A stretch of DNA of 64,000 bases from assembly GCA_965213675.1 (NCBI GenBank), contig OZ243916.1:1952001-2016000 (forward strand), given 5' to 3'. This DNA is from an uncultured Candidatus Binatia bacterium. GTDB taxonomy: Bacteria; Desulfobacterota; Binatia; UBA9968; JAJDTQ01. Made by a program: the position numbers and the translations under genes. The notes under the pieces are model-generated. The model was not told where the DNA came from. It did no database searches and saw only the letters and a program-made list of their open reading frames with translations. Shown here piece after piece: positions 50,583-63,742 of the stretch (positions within the stretch are counted from its first letter, which is position 1; each line of letters starts with the position of its first letter).

Positions 50583-50608
50583 TGTGGTGTCTGGTTGATT
50601 CGCGTCAT
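50579..50608. repeat. Isolated end of the 165-bp element forming the whole GH84-senA spacer
   Basis: CTAGTGTGGTGTCTGGTTGATTCGCGTCAT, one mismatch to 35741-35770. Confidence 0.85.
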
Positions 50609-51911
50609 GGAAGACAAAACCGCATCCACCCGTGAAGTCCTGGGCACCCTGGAAGAGGTGCGCTCCCGGACCTTGGGCTTCGTTGAGGACCTGTCCGGGG
50701 AGCAACTCACGGTTCCCTTGCTGAACATCGTCAACCCCCCGCTCTGGGAGATCGGGCATGTATCCTGGTTTCACGAGCGCTGGGCGTTGCGGCATCTGCG
50801 CGGCCGCGATCCCATCATTGCCAACGGCGACGCGCTCTACGATTCCGCGGCCGTCCATCACGACACCCGCTGGGTGCTGGCGCTGCCGCCGCTTGAAGCG
50901 ACCCTCGCCTACAAGGCACGGGTCCTGCAACAGATCATCGAAGAGCTGCCCGCCCAGCGTTTGAGCCCGAAGGAAACCTACTTCCACAGGCTCGTGATCT
51001 TCCACGAGGACATGCACGCGGAGGCCATGACCTACACGCGCCAGACTCTGGGATATCCGCGGCCTCCATTCATGCGCCAACGCCAGGGCGCGGCCGGCGG
51101 TCCCTGCCCGGGCGACGTGGAGTTGCCGGGCGGCGAATTCATTCTCGGCGGCACGCCGGACCTGCCCTTCGTCTTCGACAACGAAAAATGGGGCCATCCG
51201 GTGACCGTGGCGCCCTATCGCATCGCCCGCGCTCCAGTGACGAACCTGGAGTTCGCCGCCTTCGTGGACGACAACGGCTACGGTGACTCGCGCTGGTGGA
51301 GCGACGCGGGCTGGCGCTGGCGGCAGGGCGAGGGGAGCGCCCATCCCGTCTATTGGAAACGCGAGTCTCCGGGACGGTGGCTGGAGCGGGTGTTCGATCA
51401 ATGGGGGCCGCTTCAAGCGGAGATCCCGGTGATCCACGTCAACTGGTACGAGGCCGAGGCGTATTGCCGCTGGGCCGGAAGGCGGCTGGCCACGGAGGCG
51501 GAGTGGGAGATGGCCGCGGCGGTGGACCCCGCCGGCGGCACAGATCCGGATGCCGCCAAGCGCCGCTACCCCTGGGGCGAGGTGCCGCCCGACCCCATCC
51601 ACGGCAACCTCGATTGGGCCGCTGGAGGCCGCCTGCCAGTGGACGCGCTTTCGGCGGGCGACAGCGCCGCCGGCTGCCGGCAGATGATCGGCAACGTGTG
51701 GGAGTGGACGGCCCACGCCTTCCACCCCTACCCCGGCTTCGTCCGGGACCCCTACAAGGAATACTCGGAGCCCTGGTTCGGCGACCGCAAGGTGCTGCGC
51801 GGCGGCTGCTGGGCCACCCGCTCCCACCTGATCCGCAACACCTGGCGGAACTTCTTCACCCCGGACCGCCGCGACGTGTTGGCGGGCTTCCGGACCTGCG
51901 CACGACACTAA
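50607..51911 (+). CDS. senA: Selenoneine synthase SenA-like non-heme iron enzyme (EgtB family)
   Basis: DinB-like NPPLWEIGH and HEDMHAEA, FGE-sulfatase domain (FDNEKW, GNVWEW, WRNFFTPDRRD); immediately upstream of senB. Confidence 0.85.
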   Translation: MEDKTASTREVLGTLEEVRSRTLGFVEDLSGEQLTVPLLNIVNPPLWEIGHVSWFHERWALRHLRGRDPIIANGDALYDSAAVHHDTRWVLALPPLEATLAYKARVLQQIIEELPAQRLSPKETYFHRLVIFHEDMHAEAMTYTRQTLGYPRPPFMRQRQGAAGGPCPGDVELPGGEFILGGTPDLPFVFDNEKWGHPVTVAPYRIARAPVTNLEFAAFVDDNGYGDSRWWSDAGWRWRQGEGSAHPVYWKRESPGRWLERVFDQWGPLQAEIPVIHVNWYEAEAYCRWAGRRLATEAEWEMAAAVDPAGGTDPDAAKRRYPWGEVPPDPIHGNLDWAAGGRLPVDALSAGDSAAGCRQMIGNVWEWTAHAFHPYPGFVRDPYKEYSEPWFGDRKVLRGGCWATRSHLIRNTWRNFFTPDRRDVLAGFRTCARH

Positions 51912-52050
51912 TGGCGTGGCACACGATGACGCGTGACAGGCCACGAATGTCTCGTCCTGTTCGACAACCCGGATGACAACACTTCGAACGAATTGGCCAG
52001 GACATCGGCCCATTGGATTGGACAACGAGTTGACACGAACAAGCACCGCG

Positions 52051-53007
52051 GTGGCCAGAATCGCGCTCGTGACTCCCGCTGGTCCCACCCGGCGCACCGG
52101 CAACCGGATTTCCGGGGGCCGGTGGGCGCGCATCCTGCGGGCGTCGGGATACAAGGTCACGGCCCTGGACCGCTACGAACGTGAACGCTGTGATCTGCTG
52201 ATCGCGTTGCATGCCCGGCGCAGTCATCCGTCCATCCGCCAGTTTCATGAGCGCCAGCCCGACAAGCCCATCATTGTCGTGCTGACCGGAACCGACCTGT
52301 ACCGCGACATTCACGTGGACGACGACTCCCGGGAGTCGCTGCGCTTGGCGACCCGCCTGGTGGTGCTCCAACGCAAGGGACTGGACGAACTCCAGCCGGG
52401 GCTGCACGAGAAGACCCGGGTCATCTACCAGTCCGCGCCAGCCCGTCCGGGCCATCGCCGCGACCGAAACCTGCAGTTCACGGTTACGGTGGTGGGCCAC
52501 ATGCGCCCCGAGAAAGACCCGTTCCGCACCGCCATGGCGGTGCGCTCGCTGCCCCGCACGTCCCGGATCCAGGTCACGCACATCGGCGACGCCTTCGGCG
52601 ACAGCTTCCTGCGCCGCGCCGAACGGGAAGTCGAGCACAACCCGCGCTACCGCTGGCTGGGCGACCTGCCCCACTGGAAGACGCGGCAACTCCTGGCCAA
52701 CAGCCACCTCACGTCCATCACCTCGCGCATGGAAGGCAGCTCCAATGTCCTGTGTGAAGCGCTGGCCTCCGGCGTGCCCGTGGCCGCGTCCAGGATCTCC
52801 GGTTTGATGGGAACCCTGGGCGACGACTATCCCGGCTACTACGAGATGGGCGACACCGCCGGGCTCAAGCGTCTCCTGCTGCGGGCCGAGAACGATCCGG
52901 CGTTCTATGAGAACCTGGCACGGCACTGCGCCAAGGTCGCCCCCCTGGTGAACCCGGACCGGGAGATCCTGACTTGGCAGGGGTTGGTCCGTGAAGTGAC
53001 GCGTTGA
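52051..53007 (+). CDS. senB: Selenosugar synthase SenB-like glycosyltransferase (TIGR04348 family)
   Basis: GNRISGGRW, IALHARRS, LTGTDLYRD, GHMRPEKDP, SRMEGSSNV. Confidence 0.9.
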   Translation: MARIALVTPAGPTRRTGNRISGGRWARILRASGYKVTALDRYERERCDLLIALHARRSHPSIRQFHERQPDKPIIVVLTGTDLYRDIHVDDDSRESLRLATRLVVLQRKGLDELQPGLHEKTRVIYQSAPARPGHRRDRNLQFTVTVVGHMRPEKDPFRTAMAVRSLPRTSRIQVTHIGDAFGDSFLRRAEREVEHNPRYRWLGDLPHWKTRQLLANSHLTSITSRMEGSSNVLCEALASGVPVAASRISGLMGTLGDDYPGYYEMGDTAGLKRLLLRAENDPAFYENLARHCAKVAPLVNPDREILTWQGLVREVTR

Positions 53008-53210: not shown

Positions 53211-54370
<1,160 letters not shown>

Positions 54371-54374
<4 letters not shown>

Positions 54375-55162
54375 TGGATCACCGTTCCTTTCCCCGCCAA
54401 CGCGTCTCGCACCGGGTGTTCCGTGCGGCCGTCGCTCATGATGACCTTTTCCGCGCCGTCCTCGAAGAGCTTGCGCAGCGCCAGCATCTTGCGCTTCATG
54501 CGCCCCTCCACCTGCCCCTCCCGCTGTTCCAGTTCACCCGCCCGGATGTGCGGCACCACGGTGCCCTCGTCGTCCTTGTCGGCGAGGAAGCCCGGCGCCT
54601 CGATGAGCTGCAGCACCACCTCGGCATGGAAGGCAGCCTGGAGCACGTTGATGATGTCGTCGTTCTCCGAGTTGATGGCGTTGTGGCGCTCGTCGATGAT
54701 GGGGATGGACAGCACCGGGGCGTAACCGCCGTCGAGCAGCAACTGGAACAGTTCCCTGTTGGCGCTCCGGGGCTTGCCCGAGAAGTCGCGTACGATGAGG
54801 GTCTTGCCGTTCTTGCGCACCCGGATGCCCTTGTTGCGCTGGCCCTGAATGGCGCGGCCATCGATGCCCGAAAGGCCCACGGCATTGACCCCATTCTGTT
54901 GCAGCAACTCCACGATGCGCTTGTTCTGAACCCCGGCGTAGCCCATCAGGATGGCGTCGAGCGCGTCTTTGTCCGACAGCACGCTGGTGTAGCCCGACAC
55001 CGACGTGACCACCTGGGTGGGGGTCCCGAGCCTGGCCGCGATGGCGTCGCGCACCGCGTTGGCGCCGTGCACCACGATGAACCGGTCGGACACGGCCGCC
55101 AGATCCCCGGCGATGCCCGGAAGGTTGATGTCGCTGCCGCCGCCGATCTTCACCAGTATCAT
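54371..55162 (-). CDS. lysZ: [LysW]-aminoadipate/glutamate kinase
   Basis: MILVKIGG, VVHGA, TSVSGYTS, GRMKRK; basic GQRNKGIRVRKNGK segment as in LysW-binding kinases. Confidence 0.9.
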
Positions 55163-55797
55163 CGAAGGTGCTCCACCGTGTCGTTGGGGATGACGCGCCA
55201 GTCGCCGCCCTCCGGCACGGTTTCCGAGCTGACGGTGAAGCCGCCCTCGTTCTCGCGGGCGCGCAGCCTGAAGTAGTCGGGTTGTTCATTGAAGAACGAC
55301 CCGACGTAGACATTCTCACCATCGGCAATGATCATGTTCATGGCGCGCACGTAGCGAGTCCTGCGGACGATGATGTCCATCCCCTTGCGCATGGCCGCGG
55401 CCATGTCGCCCTTGTCGAAGCGCTTGACGAAGTTGAACACTTTTTCCGCGCCGATGCGGCCTTCCGCGTTGATGCGAACGCCGCGCAGTTCGCCGTTGAA
55501 GGCGAACACGTAGCGATCATCGGAGAACGGCATGTTGTTTGCCACCACGATGTTCTCGTCCCGGAACGCGCTGCGGGCGTGTCCCACCAGCAGCGTGGTG
55601 GCGCCGAACTGCGTCAGGTCGTCCTCCCAGATGGGCTTGATGTTGTGATAGAACCGCCACGCGCCGTCAACCGTGTAGGCGCATCCCCAGCCGTGGCCCT
55701 GGTACTCGGGACTGTTCCGGGCGATGCCGGCCAGATGGGACAAGCGCTCGCCGATGTCGAACGGCTCCCGGCTCTTGACGCACAACAGGCGACACAT
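55159..55797 (-). CDS. Class II glutamine-amidotransferase-like Ntn hydrolase (EgtC/YafJ/Dug3-related)
   Basis: MCRLL N-terminal Cys, GHGWG, GHARSA, NMPF, FNG; ATGA overlap with lysZ. Confidence 0.85.
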   Translation of the reverse strand: MCRLLCVKSREPFDIGERLSHLAGIARNSPEYQGHGWGCAYTVDGAWRFYHNIKPIWEDDLTQFGATTLLVGHARSAFRDENIVVANNMPFSDDRYVFAFNGELRGVRINAEGRIGAEKVFNFVKRFDKGDMAAAMRKGMDIIVRRTRYVRAMNMIIADGENVYVGSFFNEQPDYFRLRARENEGGFTVSSETVPEGGDWRVIPNDTVEHLR

Positions 55798-55809: not shown

Positions 55810-56856
55810 CTAGGGGTGGAGGCCCGGGAACTCGAGGCCCTCGGTTTCCTCGAAGCCGTTCATGATGTTGAAGGCCTGGACCGCCTGCCCGGCGGCGCCC
55901 TTCATGAGGTTGTCGAGGGCGCTCAGCACCACCAGCCGGTCCGACCCCTTCTCCTTCTGGAAGCCGATGTCGCAGTAGTTGGTGCCGCTCAGCAACTTGG
56001 GCTCGGGATAGCGGTAGATGCCGTCGGCTTCCTTGACGATGCGGATGAAGGGCTCCTTGCCGTAGGCCTCGCGGTAGGTCTTCCACACGTCCTTCTCTTC
56101 CAGCGGTTCGCGCAGGAACAAATGGCACGTCGCCAGGACGCCGCGCACCATTTCGATGGAGGTGGCGGAGAAGTACACCCGGACCGGCTCGCCGAACGCC
56201 AGTTCCTGGTAGATCTCCGCGCTGTGCCGGTGCAGGGTGGGCATGAACGAACGCACGGCGCCGCTCCGTTCCGGGTGGTGGGACGCGTCGCTGGCGGCGT
56301 TGCCGCCCTCGCTGGACCCCACCTTGACCTCCACCACCGTGCGCTCGGTGTCCACCAGCCCCTTCCTGAAGAACGGATAGACGCCAAGGATCGTGGCGGT
56401 GGCGTTGCAACCGGCGCCGGTGACGAAGCTCGCCTCCCGGATCTCCTCGCGGTGCAGCTCAGGAACCCCGTAGACGAACTCCTTCAAGAGCTCCGGGCGC
56501 TGGTGCGGCTTGCCGTACCAGCGCTGGTATTCGTCCACGTCGTTGAGCCGGAAGTCCGCGCTCAGATCCACCAGCTTCGGGGCGAGATCCCGGAACGACT
56601 CGATGCGTTCCTGGGCCTGGCCGTGGGGCAGGCAGAGGAACAGCAGGTCGCACGGCTTGAGCTCGTCCATCCTGCAGAAGCGGAGCTGCGTCCGCTTGCG
56701 CAGATTGGGATGGGCCTTGAACACGAACTTGCCCGCGAAGCGCTCCGAGGTGACCTCGCACACCTCCACCCGGGGGTGCCCCAGGAGCAGCCGCAGGAGC
56801 TCGCCGCCCGTGTAGCCGGACGCCCCCACGATAGAGACCTTCAGCTTCTCGATCAC
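55810..56856 (-). CDS. lysY: [LysW]-acyl-phosphate reductase (LysY/ArgC)
   Basis: GASGYTGGELLRLL, HPNLR, DLSADFRL, GCNATA, HHPERSG, LDNLMKGAAGQA. Confidence 0.9.
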   Translation of the reverse strand: MIEKLKVSIVGASGYTGGELLRLLLGHPRVEVCEVTSERFAGKFVFKAHPNLRKRTQLRFCRMDELKPCDLLFLCLPHGQAQERIESFRDLAPKLVDLSADFRLNDVDEYQRWYGKPHQRPELLKEFVYGVPELHREEIREASFVTGAGCNATATILGVYPFFRKGLVDTERTVVEVKVGSSEGGNAASDASHHPERSGAVRSFMPTLHRHSAEIYQELAFGEPVRVYFSATSIEMVRGVLATCHLFLREPLEEKDVWKTYREAYGKEPFIRIVKEADGIYRYPEPKLLSGTNYCDIGFQKEKGSDRLVVLSALDNLMKGAAGQAVQAFNIMNGFEETEGLEFPGLHP

Positions 56857-57005: not shown

Positions 57006-58013
57006 CTACGGCGCGGGAGCCCGCAGCTTCACAGCAGCGTTGTCGAGGAACCGCCGCAGGTTCTCGGACATTGACCTCAGAAGGACCACCGGGAACTGCG
57101 GGTAGTCGTCCGCGTGCGCAGCGGCGGTAATCAGTTGACAGGCGATCCGCAAGGTCACGATCAGACCAAACGACCAGCGCACGCACGCATCGTCGATCGG
57201 ATTTGACGGTCGATTCAAGACCGCGACCAGCGATACATCGTCGCCGATGCACTCCGCACCAAGAGCCTCGGCCAAGGCCTTCGCTGTCCTCGGAAGCCTG
57301 TCGGGGGTCGTTCGGTTCGCGTGGGCCCACAGCCTGCCGACGACCGTCGGGTTCTTCGAAGAACTCGGCCGATAACTAGTCGGATTCTTGATCGCCTCCA
57401 AAGTCCTTGCAATCCGATCCAACTCCTCGTCGATGCCTCCACCTGTCTTACTTCCGGAGAGAACTGAATCCCAAAGGCTCTGTATCCGCCGCCCGTCGAG
57501 TTGTCGCGACGCGCGCAACCGGAGCAACAGCGCCTCATCGACCTCGTAGAGAATCCGCCGCAAATCGTCGAGCCCCGACGCCGCGTGGGAGAGCATCACG
57601 GCCGCCGATCGCGAGAGATCCTCAACGTGAACCGTCGCAGCTTGTCCGGGCTTCACGGGGAACCACTCTGGCAACACGATCGGCGATGACGTGTCAGCCA
57701 AACTCAACTCCTTGCGGCTGACAATCACCAGGTCGACTCCATGCCGCTCCCGGGCGACTTCATTCTGCACTTGAATATCGTCCTTTGTGCGGCGCAGAAC
57801 CTCTGACACGTCGTTCATCACAGAGTTCGGATCGACGAAACCGCCCGTACGCAGCACATGCGGAACGATGGCAAGCTCTCCACGTAGTTGCTTCAACTCT
57901 CGCGCGACATAGTCACGATCGGTGGAGGCCCAAACCCAGAACACGTTCAACGGTCGCGATTCCCGCCGTCGCGAGACACGAATCGCCTGGACTATGGTAT
58001 CCGGTTCCAACAC
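57006..58013 (-). CDS. Hypothetical protein, partner of the STAND NTPase
   Basis: 335-aa ORF starting 15 bp after the NTPase stop, same strand and composition; no family recognised. Confidence 0.75.
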   Translation of the reverse strand: MLEPDTIVQAIRVSRRRESRPLNVFWVWASTDRDYVARELKQLRGELAIVPHVLRTGGFVDPNSVMNDVSEVLRRTKDDIQVQNEVARERHGVDLVIVSRKELSLADTSSPIVLPEWFPVKPGQAATVHVEDLSRSAAVMLSHAASGLDDLRRILYEVDEALLLRLRASRQLDGRRIQSLWDSVLSGSKTGGGIDEELDRIARTLEAIKNPTSYRPSSSKNPTVVGRLWAHANRTTPDRLPRTAKALAEALGAECIGDDVSLVAVLNRPSNPIDDACVRWSFGLIVTLRIACQLITAAAHADDYPQFPVVLLRSMSENLRRFLDNAAVKLRAPAP

Positions 58014-58028
58014 TTGTTTACCCCGCCG

Positions 58029-60449
58029 TCACGTCACCTTGGGTCGGACTGCTGCAGCGATCCGCCCGAGCGTCGGAATCCCAACACGAACCCAGTCGTC
58101 ATCGTACGACAGAAAGTTTGCCTGGGACGCCGAGCGCAGTATTTCGTTGTCGTCCGGTGGTGGCTCGCCCTGTGGAACGGGAATCCGACGCATTAGTTCC
58201 GGGAAACACGCGCGTTCCACCTTGAACCCCGTGGACCCATTGTTCGCCAATTCGCGAAGCACCCAGTACGCCGTGAACAGCCATGGGTTGTCCCGGTATC
58301 CTTGCGCCGACATCGCCTCCGCAGCCGCATACCTGAAAAAGTCATAGTCAGGACTCAGCAGAATCCTGTCAGCGTTCAGTTTGTTGTCGGCGAAGTCCGT
58401 AAAATCGCCATCCTGCACCCGCAGGCCGATTTGCGGCCGTCGTTTTTCGATGAGCCACTCCACGAACTCCCCTAGGACGTTCGCCGTTAAATACGGGTGT
58501 CCTGCCGTCTCCTCGAACAGCGCGTCTAGGAACCGTGCGGTAACTTCGATCCGGTCGGCTAGTATCTTGCGCACCAACTCCGAGAACTCACCGGTGGTCG
58601 TCTGTGGCGAGTGCTCAAACAATGGGAACGGATCCTGCTGGACATAGGGAGCGAGTTGGTTCTGATCCATGAGAATAAAATGGGCGTCCGGTTGCTGGCC
58701 CAGAAACACCAACACATTGTCGTAGGAAAACGTCATCAGTTGGTTGAGGATCGGTTGCACTACAGTGTGCCGAATACTTGGTTCCCGCTCGACAGCCGTC
58801 TTAAGTCTCCCGAATAGTGTTTCGTACTCATCGATCACTAGTACCATCCGCTTGTCTTCATCGTGGATGGGTGGTGCACACGTTGTGACCGCGTTCTCAA
58901 CGAACTTTTCGGAAATCATCTGGCCATCCGCCAGAGCCTCACACACGAGATGGTAGAACTTCATGTCGTCTGAAGATTGCGACACTCCACACGTCTGACT
59001 GACAACATTCGCATCTCCACTCGTTGAGTCCATATCAAGACAGGCCGTCGTTTTACCACTCCTTCGCACGCTACACCACAATCGTACGCCAGGCCGCCGT
59101 TCGAAGGTCCGAAGAAGGTCACGTACGCTCGTGCGGGCTACGTGAAAAACCGTGGCTCGGTTCCGAATCTGATCCTGAAGCGGGAACTGGCGTGCGAAAT
59201 TGAACGTGATCGGCGTAGTCGTGCTCCAAGTGCTACGAAGCGCCATAACCGCGGCATCCCAAACTCTGAACGCTCGGTCGGCCGATTCTTCCCGCATCTC
59301 GCCTGCGGGCACGACGATCTCCGCTAGTCCACTCTGTTCGGAGGCAATTTTCCGCACGTCCGGCTTCAACGGCGCGATCACCAGCGTCACCTGCCGGCGG
59401 ACCGCGTCATCCAGCTCTGCCGGCGAGACGAAACTGTCGTCTAGGAACGCGTTGACTTCGACAAGCCGCTGCGATGCGGCATCGCGGGGGGGCCGCACGG
59501 CCACGTCGAGCCGCCGTTCGTGCCACCTATATTGTCCGGCGACCGGAACGGGATGATAATCGTCATCCGGTCGATCATGGAACCGTTGTAGTGCGTCGAG
59601 GAGGGGAAGGACGGTCGTTCTCAGGCCGTCAACGAGAGGGCCGGGCGCCAAGCGATCGACGAGGCGGTCGGCGTGACGAGGAAGCAGAAATGCTATGTAG
59701 TGCATCCATGAACGCTGGAACCTAGGAAGAACGGCGTTCCCTGTCTGCTGTTCAAACGACACCGACGAGTAACCTTCAAGAATACCGCTCAATGCGGCCG
59801 AAACCAGCAAACGCAGCGCCGAGGTAAATCCGTGATCGGACGTGGCCGATGACCGAACGGAATAGAAGTCCAACGGCAATGCTAGAAACCGCGACAGACC
59901 GTTTAGCGACTTCCTGAGTGCTTCGTCGTGATCATGTTTAGCACGTGTGAATCTGTACCCTTGTGAGAACACATCGCGGGTATGATCGGCGAGCGGACCT
60001 GAGAGGGAACGGCCGTCGTCGTCGGACGACAGGTGACGCATCTCATCAAGGAACTGACCGAGAAATTCTGTAAGGCAATCCCGATAGAACGTGGACCACT
60101 GGAAAATGTGCTGTTCACGGAGGGCATTGAGCGCTCTCCGAAAATCCGCTGCGAGTTCCAAGAGATTCCGGGTGGAGTCCCTTGGAGCAGACCCAGCAAT
60201 CGGTATTTCAATGACCTGCGCCGTCTCAGAGTCAGAGCTTCTGGTCTTCCCCCCGAGGATTCTCAACAGGTTATTGCGGCGCTTCGGCCGAAACCGTTGA
60301 AGCAAGTTTTCGATTTCCAGGCGCCATTCGGAGAGCTCGATGTCATCCATCTGGCGAACAAGCGCCTCCAGCGCTCGCTCCGGGCGTTCAGCTTCAAGCT
60401 TGTCTAACCAACGCCTGATCTCGGTAAGACGTTCTTCAATCGTCGACAT
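58029..60449 (-). CDS. STAND-class P-loop NTPase with an unknown N-terminal region
   Basis: Walker A-like SVRRSGKTT, Walker B VLVIDEYE, GxP motif in EETAGHPY, probable C-terminal winged helix. Confidence 0.78.
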   Translation of the reverse strand: MSTIEERLTEIRRWLDKLEAERPERALEALVRQMDDIELSEWRLEIENLLQRFRPKRRNNLLRILGGKTRSSDSETAQVIEIPIAGSAPRDSTRNLLELAADFRRALNALREQHIFQWSTFYRDCLTEFLGQFLDEMRHLSSDDDGRSLSGPLADHTRDVFSQGYRFTRAKHDHDEALRKSLNGLSRFLALPLDFYSVRSSATSDHGFTSALRLLVSAALSGILEGYSSVSFEQQTGNAVLPRFQRSWMHYIAFLLPRHADRLVDRLAPGPLVDGLRTTVLPLLDALQRFHDRPDDDYHPVPVAGQYRWHERRLDVAVRPPRDAASQRLVEVNAFLDDSFVSPAELDDAVRRQVTLVIAPLKPDVRKIASEQSGLAEIVVPAGEMREESADRAFRVWDAAVMALRSTWSTTTPITFNFARQFPLQDQIRNRATVFHVARTSVRDLLRTFERRPGVRLWCSVRRSGKTTACLDMDSTSGDANVVSQTCGVSQSSDDMKFYHLVCEALADGQMISEKFVENAVTTCAPPIHDEDKRMVLVIDEYETLFGRLKTAVEREPSIRHTVVQPILNQLMTFSYDNVLVFLGQQPDAHFILMDQNQLAPYVQQDPFPLFEHSPQTTTGEFSELVRKILADRIEVTARFLDALFEETAGHPYLTANVLGEFVEWLIEKRRPQIGLRVQDGDFTDFADNKLNADRILLSPDYDFFRYAAAEAMSAQGYRDNPWLFTAYWVLRELANNGSTGFKVERACFPELMRRIPVPQGEPPPDDNEILRSASQANFLSYDDDWVRVGIPTLGRIAAAVRPKVT

Positions 60450-60929: not shown

Positions 60930-61805
60930 TCAGGACGCGCCCCTGCGCCCCTGTTCCTCACGGCCCGCCTTGAGCACGTGCTCCACGACCAAGCCGGGAA
61001 TGTTGACGCCGGTGGTGTCGATGCTGTTGCGGAACTCCATGGTGTAGTTGACCTCGTTGACCAGCAGGCCGCCGGGAGTTTCAAACAGGTCCACGGCGAC
61101 GATGCCGCCGCCCACGGCCCGGCCCGCGCGCACCGAAAGGTCTCGCAGTTCGTCCGTCAGCGGACAGTTCTCGGCGCGCCCGCCCCGCGCCGTGTTGGTG
61201 ATCCAGTGATCGCTGTAGCGGTAGATGGCGGCCACGCACTCGTCACCGATGACGAAGCTGCGGATGTCGCGCCCGGCTTTTTTTTCGACGTACTGCTGGA
61301 TGTAGAAGATGGAGTGATGGTAGCTGCCCAGGATCGCCTTGTGCTCCAGGATCGTCTCCGCCGCGTCGCGGTCGTTGACCTTGGCCAGCAGCCGGCCCCA
61401 GGAGCCCACCGCGGGCTTCAGCACCACCGGGTAGCCCATTTCCTCGATGGCCTGCAGAGTGGATTCCTCGGTGAAGGCGATGCGCACCTCGGGCTGCGGC
61501 ACGCCGTGCTCTTGCAGGTGCACCGAGGTGAGGATCTTGTCGCCGCACACCGTCGCCACCGACGACGCGTTCACGCAGCGCACGCCGGCGCTCTCGAACA
61601 GCCGCAGGCCGTGCAGCGCCCGTGAGTGGTTGATGCAGCGCTCCAGCAGCACGTCCAGGTCGAACTCGTCCCTGCCCAGGTTGAACGAGAGCTTCCGGTC
61701 GTCGATCATCTGAAGCTCCACGTCGGGATGCTTCCGGAACTCCTTGATGAGAAGCTTCTCCTCGGGCCGGACCAATGAGTGCAGCAGACCGATCTTCAAG
61801 CTCAT
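60930..61805 (-). CDS. lysX: Alpha-aminoadipate-LysW ligase (ATP-grasp)
   Basis: [43 protein letters not shown]; ATGA overlap with lysW. Confidence 0.93.
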
Positions 61806-61966
61806 TCCCCCCAGTCTTCCTCTTCCGAGGGCGCTTCTTCCACCGCCGGAGGATCGAGGCTCGTGACCTCCAGCTCGGTGCCGCAGTCGGCGCAGGCGAT
61901 CAACTCGCCCTCCACCGCGTCGTCCTCCAATTTGAACTCCGCTCCGCAAACCGGACACTCAACCAT
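61802..61966 (-). CDS. lysW: Amino-group carrier protein LysW (54 aa, absent from the ORF track)
   Basis: Hand translation [54 protein letters not shown]: two CxxC and the EDWGE C-terminus; GGAGG RBS. Confidence 0.97.
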
Positions 61967-62261: not shown

Positions 62262-63650
62262 TTACGACGGCACGGCCTTTGCAACCGTGATGATGGCGTT
62301 TCGCAAGATCCCAACGATATCGTCGATCTGCTCATTCGTGACCACCAGCGGCGGACACACCGCCAAGGCGTGAGTGCCGCATACCCTCAGCAGCAGCCCG
62401 TTGGCGAGGCACTCGTCGCAGACCTGCCGGGGCACCTGTTGCTCCGCCGCAAAGGGCTCCCTGGTCGCCTTGTCCTTGACCAGCTCCACCGCGGCGATGA
62501 GGCCCTTGCCACGCACCTGGCCCACCATGGGCAGTTCCGCCAGCGCCGCCAGTCGTTCCTGCATGTACGCGCCCACCTCCGCCGCCCGCTCCACCAGCCG
62601 CTCCCGCTCGATAATGTCCAGATTGGCCAGCGCCGCCGCGCATGCCACCGGATGTCCGGTGTAGGTAAAGCCGTGGTAGAACGCGTCGTCGGCCGTACCC
62701 AGCAATGTCTGGAAGATCTCTTCCCGGAACAGCATGGCGCCCAGCGGCAGGTAGCCGCTGGTGAGGCCTTTGGCCGTCACCAGCACGTCCGGGGTGACGC
62801 CCTCGCCCGCGCACGCAAACAGGCTCCCGGTGCGCCCGAATCCGGTGATCACCTCGTCGCAGACCATCAGGATGCCATGCCGGTGGCAAATCTCCCGGAT
62901 GCGCGCCAGCCAGCCTTGGGGCGGCACGATGACCCCGCCCACCCCCTGCACCGGCTCGGCGACGAAGGCGGCGATGCTGTCCGGGCCGTACCGCTCCACA
63001 AGCCGTTCCAGCTCGCCGGCGCAGGCGAGCTCGCAGTCCGGCCAGGTCTTGCCCAGCTCGCACCGGTAGCAGTGGGGCCGTGCCATGTGATGCACATCCG
63101 GCAGGCCCGGTTCCATCTGCCGGTTGAAGAGCGGGATGCCGGTCAACATGGCGGCGCCGCTCGACGAGCCATGATAGCCCTGGTTGAGGGTGACGAAACG
63201 CGTCCGCCCCGGTTGGCCCTGGGCCTTCCAGTAGGCCCGCACCAGCCGGATCATGCTCTCGTTGGTCTCCGAGCCGCCCGAGGTGAACATCACGCGGGTG
63301 AGCCCTTCCGGCGCCATCTCCGCAAGCCTCGAAGCCAACCGGATGGTGGGTTCCGAGGTAGGGCCGATGAGCGTGGGCGCGTAGGCGAGACGGTCCATCT
63401 GGTGCGCCACCGCGCGGGTGATCTCTTTGCGGCCATGGCCCACGTGGACGTTCCACAGGGTGGAGAGACCGTCGATGTAGCGCTTGCCGAGGGCGTCCAG
63501 GAAATAGACGCCTTCCGCGCGCACGAACACCGGCACGCCCTCCGCCTGGTGCCGCGAGAGCGGCACGAAGCCGTGGACGAGATGGTCCCGATCGGCCCGG
63601 CTCATGGCCGCGGCGCGTTCGAGATCGACGGGGTCCTGGAAGTCCATCAT
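62262..63650 (-). CDS. Class III PLP aminotransferase (omega-amine/putrescine type)
   Basis: SGGSETNE, GYHG, AEPVQGVGG, DEVITGFGRTG, AKGLTSGYLPLG, HGFTYTGHP. Confidence 0.92.
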   Translation of the reverse strand: MMDFQDPVDLERAAAMSRADRDHLVHGFVPLSRHQAEGVPVFVRAEGVYFLDALGKRYIDGLSTLWNVHVGHGRKEITRAVAHQMDRLAYAPTLIGPTSEPTIRLASRLAEMAPEGLTRVMFTSGGSETNESMIRLVRAYWKAQGQPGRTRFVTLNQGYHGSSSGAAMLTGIPLFNRQMEPGLPDVHHMARPHCYRCELGKTWPDCELACAGELERLVERYGPDSIAAFVAEPVQGVGGVIVPPQGWLARIREICHRHGILMVCDEVITGFGRTGSLFACAGEGVTPDVLVTAKGLTSGYLPLGAMLFREEIFQTLLGTADDAFYHGFTYTGHPVACAAALANLDIIERERLVERAAEVGAYMQERLAALAELPMVGQVRGKGLIAAVELVKDKATREPFAAEQQVPRQVCDECLANGLLLRVCGTHALAVCPPLVVTNEQIDDIVGILRNAIITVAKAVPS

Positions 63651-63742
63651 CCGCTCCGAAGTGTCACGTTCAATGAATCCAGCGGGCTGGAAGGACACCG
63701 CTCTCCCGATCCGTCATTCCCGCTTCCCCCACGGCCGTGGCC

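Follow-up and report, generated by a model that had tools for sequence, protein, structure and literature searches.

The LysW route is a textbook case of amino-acid synthesis on a carrier protein, and the M20 enzyme LysK is credited with its last step. Here we analyse a 64,000-nucleotide stretch from an uncultured Candidatus Binatia bacterium (GenBank assembly GCA_965213675.1, contig OZ243916.1, positions 1,952,001 to 2,016,000; hereafter the window, with positions counted from its first letter). The window holds a LysW operon with no M20 gene within its lys cluster, and between lysY and lysZ lies a gene for a small N-terminal nucleophile (Ntn) hydrolase. This Ntn protein, a candidate for the enzyme that releases the finished amino acid from LysW, is the subject of our analysis. 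The operon and its immediate surroundings comprise the following features:

61802..61966, minus strand: lysW, encoding a 54-aa carrier protein with a CxxC...CxxC arrangement and the C-terminus EDWGE, recognised from the open reading frame list and by alignment.
60930..61805, minus strand: lysX, the ATP-grasp ligase that loads substrate onto LysW (TIGR02144, 343 bits against a cut-off of 275.6).
57006..60449, minus strand: a two-gene insert that splits the operon between lysX and lysY; these are not pathway genes.
55810..56856, minus strand: lysY, [LysW]-aminoadipyl-phosphate reductase of the ArgC family (TIGR01850, 394 bits against 233.6).
55159..55797, minus strand: the Ntn gene, with an ATG start and 212 codons beginning MCRLL, encoding a standalone Cys2 Ntn hydrolase with the class-II glutaminase fold.
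54371..55162, minus strand: lysZ, [LysW]-aminoadipate kinase (NF010659, 242.9 bits against a cut-off of 223).
53211..54374, minus strand: lysJ, [LysW]-aminoadipate-semialdehyde aminotransferase, class III (TIGR00707, 440.8 bits against 410).
50595-53007, plus strand: SenA, a selenoneine synthase (507 bits against 420), and SenB, a selenosugar synthase (383 bits).

The lysX ATG overlaps the lysW stop, the ATG of the Ntn gene lies 12 bp downstream of the end of lysY, its TGA overlaps the lysZ ATG as ATGA (tcat on the plus strand at 55159-55162), and the lysJ start overlaps the lysZ stop. The reading frame, the 12-bp spacing and the ATGA overlap described in the initial annotation are thus all present in the sequence. 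That annotation had also described an operon encoding every LysW step except LysK; lysW, lysX, lysY, lysZ and lysJ are indeed there and lysK is absent, but the operon is not contiguous, the insert at 57006..60449 having been missed. Assignment of the individual genes is further supported by the Pfam matches of LysY (Semialdhyde_dh and Semialdhyde_dhC_1) and by a 303.6-bit match of LysX to the PDB LysX chain 3vpd_A; LysJ scores 466.5 bits against NF042418, under that model's cut-off of 700. In an alignment with 24 LysW sequences from related loci, C4, C7, C25, C28, E50, D51, W52 and G53 of LysW are invariant.

We examined the Ntn protein as a sequence family. The motifs initially read as divergent from typical class-II amidotransferases (HGWG, NMPF and FNG) are real features of the family, with H35-G36-W37-G38, N88-M89-P90-F91 and F100-N101-G102 invariant in 24/24 aligned members, as is M1-C2. 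Among 47 Ntn loci collected from one-genome-per-species contigs, 41 products begin with MC and 4 with VC (a GTG start); in the other 2 the match begins at query residue 16 or 27, so that the N-terminus was not recovered. The protein has matches in approximately 2,780 database clusters, almost all of them 210-216 aa long, and the names given to these relatives go no further than 'class II glutamine amidotransferase'. The protein falls under the Pfam gathering scores of both GATase_4 (PF13230; 20 against 23 bits) and GATase_6 (PF13522; 20.9 against 27 bits), and its sole NCBIfam match is EgtC (TIGR03442), at 43.7 bits where 218.65 are required. Its Pfam and NCBIfam matches include no M20 family, and the protein is not a member of the LysK family (TIGR01902/NF003367). 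In rare cases, seven database proteins of 404-488 aa (P0121-P0127), the Ntn domain is fused to another: a LysZ kinase domain in 4 of them, LysY domains in 2 and PF05679 in 1; these proteins mostly form single-member clusters, one having three members, and may be real fusions or artefacts of gene calling or frameshifts.

The predicted structure places the protein within the Ntn fold. An AlphaFold2 (AF2) model (pLDDT 91.9, pTM 0.90) can be superposed on solved members of the four-layer alpha-beta-beta-alpha class, and a Foldseek search returned 75 PDB chains at E<=0.001, with EgtC, 3mdn, 1te5, GFAT-1, GlmS and PurF at the top. The best match was EgtC (4zfl/4zfj; TM-score 0.80, E 5e-13, identity 17-20%), and the fold is shared with the GlmS/GFAT and PurF domains and with the standalone homologues 3mdn and 1te5 at E 1e-7 to 1e-10. 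Sequence and profile searches of the PDB matched EgtC and 3mdn over residues 30-107 only, short of the region containing an invariant G-A-E-K motif considered below. Like EgtC (PDB 4zfj, 4zfk, 4zfl), the protein is a standalone, single-domain Ntn hydrolase of about 210-235 residues with a Cys2 nucleophile, predicted likewise to cleave a gamma-glutamyl amide; unlike EgtC, it is encoded among LysW-operon rather than egt genes, its proposed substrate is a protein C-terminus rather than a small molecule, and an invariant Gly occupies the position of a glutaminase Asp. The Ntn gene is therefore real and conserved, and encodes a divergent EgtC-like Ntn hydrolase that is a member of neither the EgtC nor the LysK family.

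The gene keeps its place in the operon across distant lineages. In all 47 loci lysZ lies directly downstream of it, and in 45 of the 47 lysW lies upstream, within the order lysW-(homocitrate synthase)-lysX-lysY-Ntn-lysZ-lysJ, homocitrate synthase being present in some loci only. The closest loci come from metagenome-assembled genomes (MAGs) labelled Candidatus Binatia, and the remainder from Melioribacteraceae, Calditrichia, Rhodothermaceae, Gemmatimonadota, KSB1, Arenicellales, Bdellovibrionota and one MAG labelled Woesearchaeota. Metagenome contigs were scanned as well, with a LysW alignment as the only seed, and yielded 80 loci, of which 36 show both lysY and lysZ; the Ntn gene lies between these two in 30 of the 36 and not in the other 6. 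Co-location with lysW, lysX, lysY, lysZ and lysJ genes thus extends over 47/47 genome loci and 31 metagenome loci. Operons with lysK are built differently: lysK follows lysJ (L065, L108, L125) or lysX (L089, L097) and does not stand at the lysY-lysZ junction, as in the LysK-type genome G086, where the order is lysW-lysX-lysY-lysZ-lysJ-lysK. The earlier proposal that the Ntn gene occupies the place of lysK consequently holds as a prediction about function, and fails as a statement about position.

Several loci depart from the common layout. In a Binatia MAG (L023, 2631-12168), lysW-lysX is followed by two tandem copies of lysY-Ntn-lysZ-lysJ, with a shorter lysZ match in the second copy. Three Ntn-type loci (L035, 1449-4327; L036, 7254-8926; L079, 3498-6423) carry two LysX paralogues with 55-62% and 68-75% identity to the LysX of the window, which may constitute a LysX/ArgX pair for two cargoes. 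The non-Ntn metagenome locus L100 (680-4769) contains lysW, homocitrate synthase, lysT, lysU, homoisocitrate dehydrogenase, lysX, lysY, a gene of 117 aa and lysZ, and is a useful reference for the LysK-type lineage.

If the Ntn protein replaces LysK, the two should avoid one another across genomes, and the initial annotation had proposed both a search of this genome for lysK and phylogenetic profiling for anticorrelation. We called LysK with TIGR01902 at its curated cut-off of 163.1 bits, which is exceeded in Thermus, Deinococcus, Haloferax and Sulfolobus. No protein of the Binatia genome passes this cut-off (best score, 56.2 bits), nor does any in the 47 Ntn genomes (0/47; best, 106 bits). 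Among 151 sampled Gemmatimonadota genomes, 11 are LysX-positive (LysX over its cut-off), comprising 9 with Ntn and without LysK and 2 with LysK and without Ntn; none has both and none has neither, and the 140 LysX-negative genomes carry neither gene (G104 is counted only as LysX-negative). Of 401 sampled Bacteroidota genomes, 16 are LysX-positive, and 16/16 encode the Ntn protein about 2 kb from lysX, against 0/16 with LysK. The metagenome loci follow the same pattern, with LysK in 4, Ntn in 31 and the two never in one locus. When each genome is counted once, 70 Ntn genomes plus the present one are all without LysK over the cut-off. Both checks therefore came out as anticipated.

The active site retains most, and lacks one, of the features expected of a glutaminase. 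Among the residues that never vary in the 24 aligned sequences are C2, R75, N101-G102 and the G116-A117-E118-K119 motif. When the family was aligned by profile with GlmS glutaminase domains (a profile built from the N-domains of five Ntn-carrying genomes), R75 corresponds to R73, N101-G102 to N98-G99 and G116 to D123. The N-terminal Cys, the carboxylate-binding Arg (R75) and the Asn-Gly oxyanion hole (N101-G102) of the GlmS and PurF glutaminase domains are accordingly kept. The Asp of GlmS D123 and PurF D127, which we take to bind the free alpha-amino group of glutamine, is not: the Asp of the glutaminase TD[ST]E motif becomes a Gly in the invariant G-A-E-K of the Ntn family, with Gly116 at the aligned site (hhalign E 0.015). 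A helix that begins at residue 116 in the AF2 model agrees with this placement. For PurF, Table 3 of PMC7953260 lists contacts of Arg73 with the substrate carboxylate and of the Gly102 nitrogen with the carbonyl. From these alignments, the carboxylate clamp appears to be kept and the amino-group clamp lost, which fits a C-terminal, peptide-bound glutamyl residue as substrate; loss of the Asp would suit LysW in particular, because LysW presents its cargo on a glutamyl residue whose amino group is peptide-bonded. An EgtC/YafJ-like protein of genome G031 (L154) was considered for comparison and dropped, as it keeps TDSE without a Cys2.

The C-terminus of LysW itself varies within the Ntn-type operons. 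LysW ends in EDWGQ in 11 of 45 Ntn-type genome loci (L030, L040, L043, L046-L048 and L050-L054), from Melioribacteraceae and several Arenicellales-like genomes, and in 15 of the 80 metagenome loci (L069, L091-L093, L098, L101, L105, L115, L122-L124, L131, L132, L134 and L146). Three of these 15 have visible gene context, and all three are Ntn-type (3/31 Ntn-type loci); in all 10 non-Ntn loci LysW ends in Glu. Because the ATP-grasp ligase requires a carboxylate, a Gln-capped LysW needs deamidation, at the very carbonyl that the proposed hydrolase would attack.

We also modelled the Ntn protein together with LysW, a co-folding check suggested at the outset. The pair reached an ipSAE of 0.57 (0.57, 0.57 and 0.55 in three runs), whereas the best of three controls reached 0.04; the runs share >=93% of contacts, and partner pLDDT is >=82. 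The mark used is reached by 58 of 80 solved complexes and by 2 of 110 mismatched pairs, counts that hold only roughly here because custom alignments were used. Scores that pass the mark at <=0.60 include 7 of the 80 solved complexes and both passing mismatches. The prediction stands above its controls, and lends weak support to the pairing. Charge complementarity with LysW is uninformative, the isoelectric points of the Ntn family having a median of 7.7 and a range of 5.25-9.23.

Drawing together the fold, its conserved catalytic residues, the gene's place in the operon and the mutual exclusion with LysK, we propose, with a probability of roughly 0.7, that the Ntn protein hydrolyses the LysW gamma-amide in a type of operon that lacks LysK, freeing the finished amino acid from LysW; substrate and reaction are predictions from sequence. 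Removal of the initiator Met would expose Cys2, which would attack the gamma-amide carbonyl of the LysW C-terminal glutamyl residue, where the alpha-amino group of lysine (or ornithine) is joined. The amino acid would leave, giving a LysW gamma-glutamyl thioester, with Asn101-Gly102 holding the oxyanion and Arg75 the free alpha-carboxylate of the terminal residue, and water would then regenerate LysW-Glu for the next round. The same reaction on Gln-ended LysW would produce the active Glu form. In PMC12998189 (2025), the final hydrolysis of the LysW pathway is still assigned to LysK. Like LysK of Thermus, Deinococcus, Sulfolobus and Thermococcus, the Ntn protein would act at this step and regenerate LysW; unlike LysK, an ArgE homologue with a metal-dependent M20 fold, it has an Ntn cysteine fold and no homology to that enzyme. 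It would thus do the job of LysK by unrelated chemistry, as a non-orthologous replacement. This replacement had been suggested in the initial annotation and gains computational support from the LysK profile and the operon membership, its activity remaining a prediction.

Some carrier genomes appear to need such an enzyme. Seven Ntn genomes are without lysA at E<=1e-40, among them G031, listed as a complete 4.05-Mb chromosome, whose best LysK-like match has an E-value of 3.9e-6 and whose lysW-lysX gap matches the size filled by homocitrate synthase in other loci. Where homocitrate synthase stands in the operon and lysA is absent, the LysW route should be the lysine route. Judged by gene content, the Ntn enzyme is the only one on hand for the last step in these lysA-less genomes, which points to a real pathway gap that it would fill.

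Several observations weigh against the proposal that the Ntn protein releases lysine from LysW. In a quick LysZ tree (leaving out rows more than 83% identical to the LysZ of the window, exact duplicates and hits shorter than 220 residues), 55 Ntn-type rows separate from 8 non-Ntn rows across one long branch with an SH-aLRT of 99. On this tree the Ntn-type operon is one lineage spread across phyla, so the genome counts are not independent trials, and the anticorrelation with LysK may go back to a single ancestral event that travelled with a mobile operon. What the profile records is an Ntn lineage that has never met with LysK in many genomic backgrounds, not many separate replacements. The association between Gln-ended LysW and the Ntn gene (14/76 against 0/10; p approximately 0.15, one-sided) is not significant alone, the alignment of Gly116 with D123 is weak (hhalign probability 3%, E 0.015), and so is the co-fold. 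Finally, 41 of 49 genomes tested encode a lysA that passes its cut-off, and the Binatia genome itself carries lysA (528.8 bits), ArgJ and a separate ArgB, with no homocitrate synthase above 31% identity to those of the operons. With lysA in most carriers, this genome included, the LysW route is not evidently their sole lysine route.

The remaining gene content of the Binatia genome is relevant here. Two of its genes resemble isopropylmalate synthase (29-31% identity to the homocitrate synthases of the operons), two or three resemble isopropylmalate dehydrogenase, and there is a single leuCD-like pair. Just upstream of the window (G000:C1:1940911-1950572) lies a leu-type cluster with isopropylmalate-synthase-like, dehydrogenase-like and leuCD-like genes. 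This cluster holds the genome's best matches to three enzymes of LysW operons, homocitrate synthase, homoaconitase and homoisocitrate dehydrogenase, but identity is only 30-40%. An aminoadipate branch of its own could not be recognised in the genome, although the LysX signature is of the aminoadipate type: its specificity residues are F-I-T-NS (positions 182, 192, 203 and 258/259, mapped on 3vpd_A numbering), which Table 1 of PMC12998189 assigns to aminoadipate-specific LysX.

One alternative is that the Ntn enzyme merely matures LysW by converting its C-terminal Gln to Glu, or proofreads misloaded amino acids, while lysine is released by an unrecognised hydrolase such as an M20 paralogue of the ArgE/DapE family. 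The Gln-ended LysW proteins described above would call for such a maturase. Furthermore, the Binatia genome encodes at least 7 ArgE/DapE-family M20 paralogues, none over any curated cut-off, the best scoring 80 bits against 363 for the [LysW]-lysine hydrolase model NF003367, and one of these could hydrolyse LysW-lysine, a further point against the release proposal. Yet most Ntn-type operons, including this one and all Binatia loci, encode a Glu-ended LysW and always retain the Ntn gene, and M20-like matches are nearly absent from some carriers (G031, E 3.9e-6; G028, 7e-8; G047, 1e-6). Deamidation of LysW-Gln and cleavage of LysW-gamma-Lys are moreover the same reaction at the same carbonyl, which makes this alternative a subset of lysine release by the Ntn protein; as an exclusive account we regard it as unlikely. 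The protein could instead be a glutaminase, or another gamma-glutamyl amidase unrelated to LysW, that supplies ammonia or glutamate or acts on a small gamma-glutamyl metabolite and belongs to the operon through co-regulation only. In fold and in catalytic residues it matches class-II glutaminase domains, and the amidotransferase name given by databases would fit as well. Unlike the class-II amidotransferases, however, it has no acceptor or synthase domain, and the amino group is already supplied by LysJ; its invariant Gly aligns with the Asp presumed to hold the free alpha-amino group of glutamine. The gene is never found apart from lysY and lysZ in the 47 genome loci, and it is absent exactly where LysK is present. 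We consider a role unconnected with LysW quite improbable.

The initial annotation had raised a further possibility, that the protein serves as EgtC for the neighbouring EgtB-family enzyme in an ergothioneine-type biosynthesis. EgtC is indeed both its best structural match and its only NCBIfam match, at a score far below the TIGR03442 cut-off, and no EgtC over that cut-off was found in this genome or in 4 other Ntn carriers. The EgtB-like neighbour proved to be SenA, accompanied by SenB rather than by egt genes, and the pair converges on lysJ from the opposite strand. The selenoneine route uses a selenosugar and, to our knowledge, has no gamma-glutamyl intermediate. Outside Binatia, the Ntn gene stays in lys operons without SenA or SenB in the flanks, while lysZ follows it in every genome locus. 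An EgtC role is therefore very improbable.

Other features of the locus lie outside the pathway. In the Binatia-like loci L010-L029 and L045, too, the lys operon is followed by the SenA-SenB pair. A gene for a class-III (omega) aminotransferase of 478 aa (62262-63698, minus strand) stands immediately upstream of lysW, a position that it retains in Binatia-like loci. The insert consists of a gene for an 806-aa protein with a Walker-A-like RRSGKTT motif (58029-60449) and one for a 335-aa protein (57006-58013). Its GC content is 0.52-0.61, against 0.64-0.69 in the flanks; its proteins have no Pfam, NCBIfam or PADLOC match, a defence-system search included, and tblastn matched neither of them in the 47 related loci. 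Because it is absent from all of these loci, the insert is probably foreign and recently acquired, and it may uncouple lysW-lysX from the remaining operon genes.

Collectively, among the samples searched, bacterial LysW operons outside the model organisms mostly lack LysK and carry the Ntn gene: 25 of the 27 Gemmatimonadota and Bacteroidota genomes with LysX do so, as do 30 of the 36 metagenome loci in which both lysY and lysZ are visible. Automatic annotation, which labels the gene a generic amidotransferase, consequently makes lysine synthesis look incomplete in several phyla. Full-text searches, with most subscription journals outside their reach, returned no account of an Ntn enzyme acting with LysW or of the EDWGQ terminus. 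If confirmed, lysine release by the Ntn protein would close this apparent gap, provide a clean case of non-orthologous replacement in which thiol chemistry takes the place of metal chemistry, account for Gln-ended LysW and add a protein-directed activity to the glutaminase fold. We give about even odds to a broader reading, in which the Ntn protein would be the first protein-C-terminal gamma-glutamyl amidase, both freeing lysine and activating Gln-capped LysW. Its operon would then represent the prevailing bacterial carrier-protein aminoadipate pathway outside Deinococcota, with LysK dispensable, and in lineages such as Binatia, which have lysA and no dedicated homocitrate synthase, it would provide a second, differently fed route to lysine.

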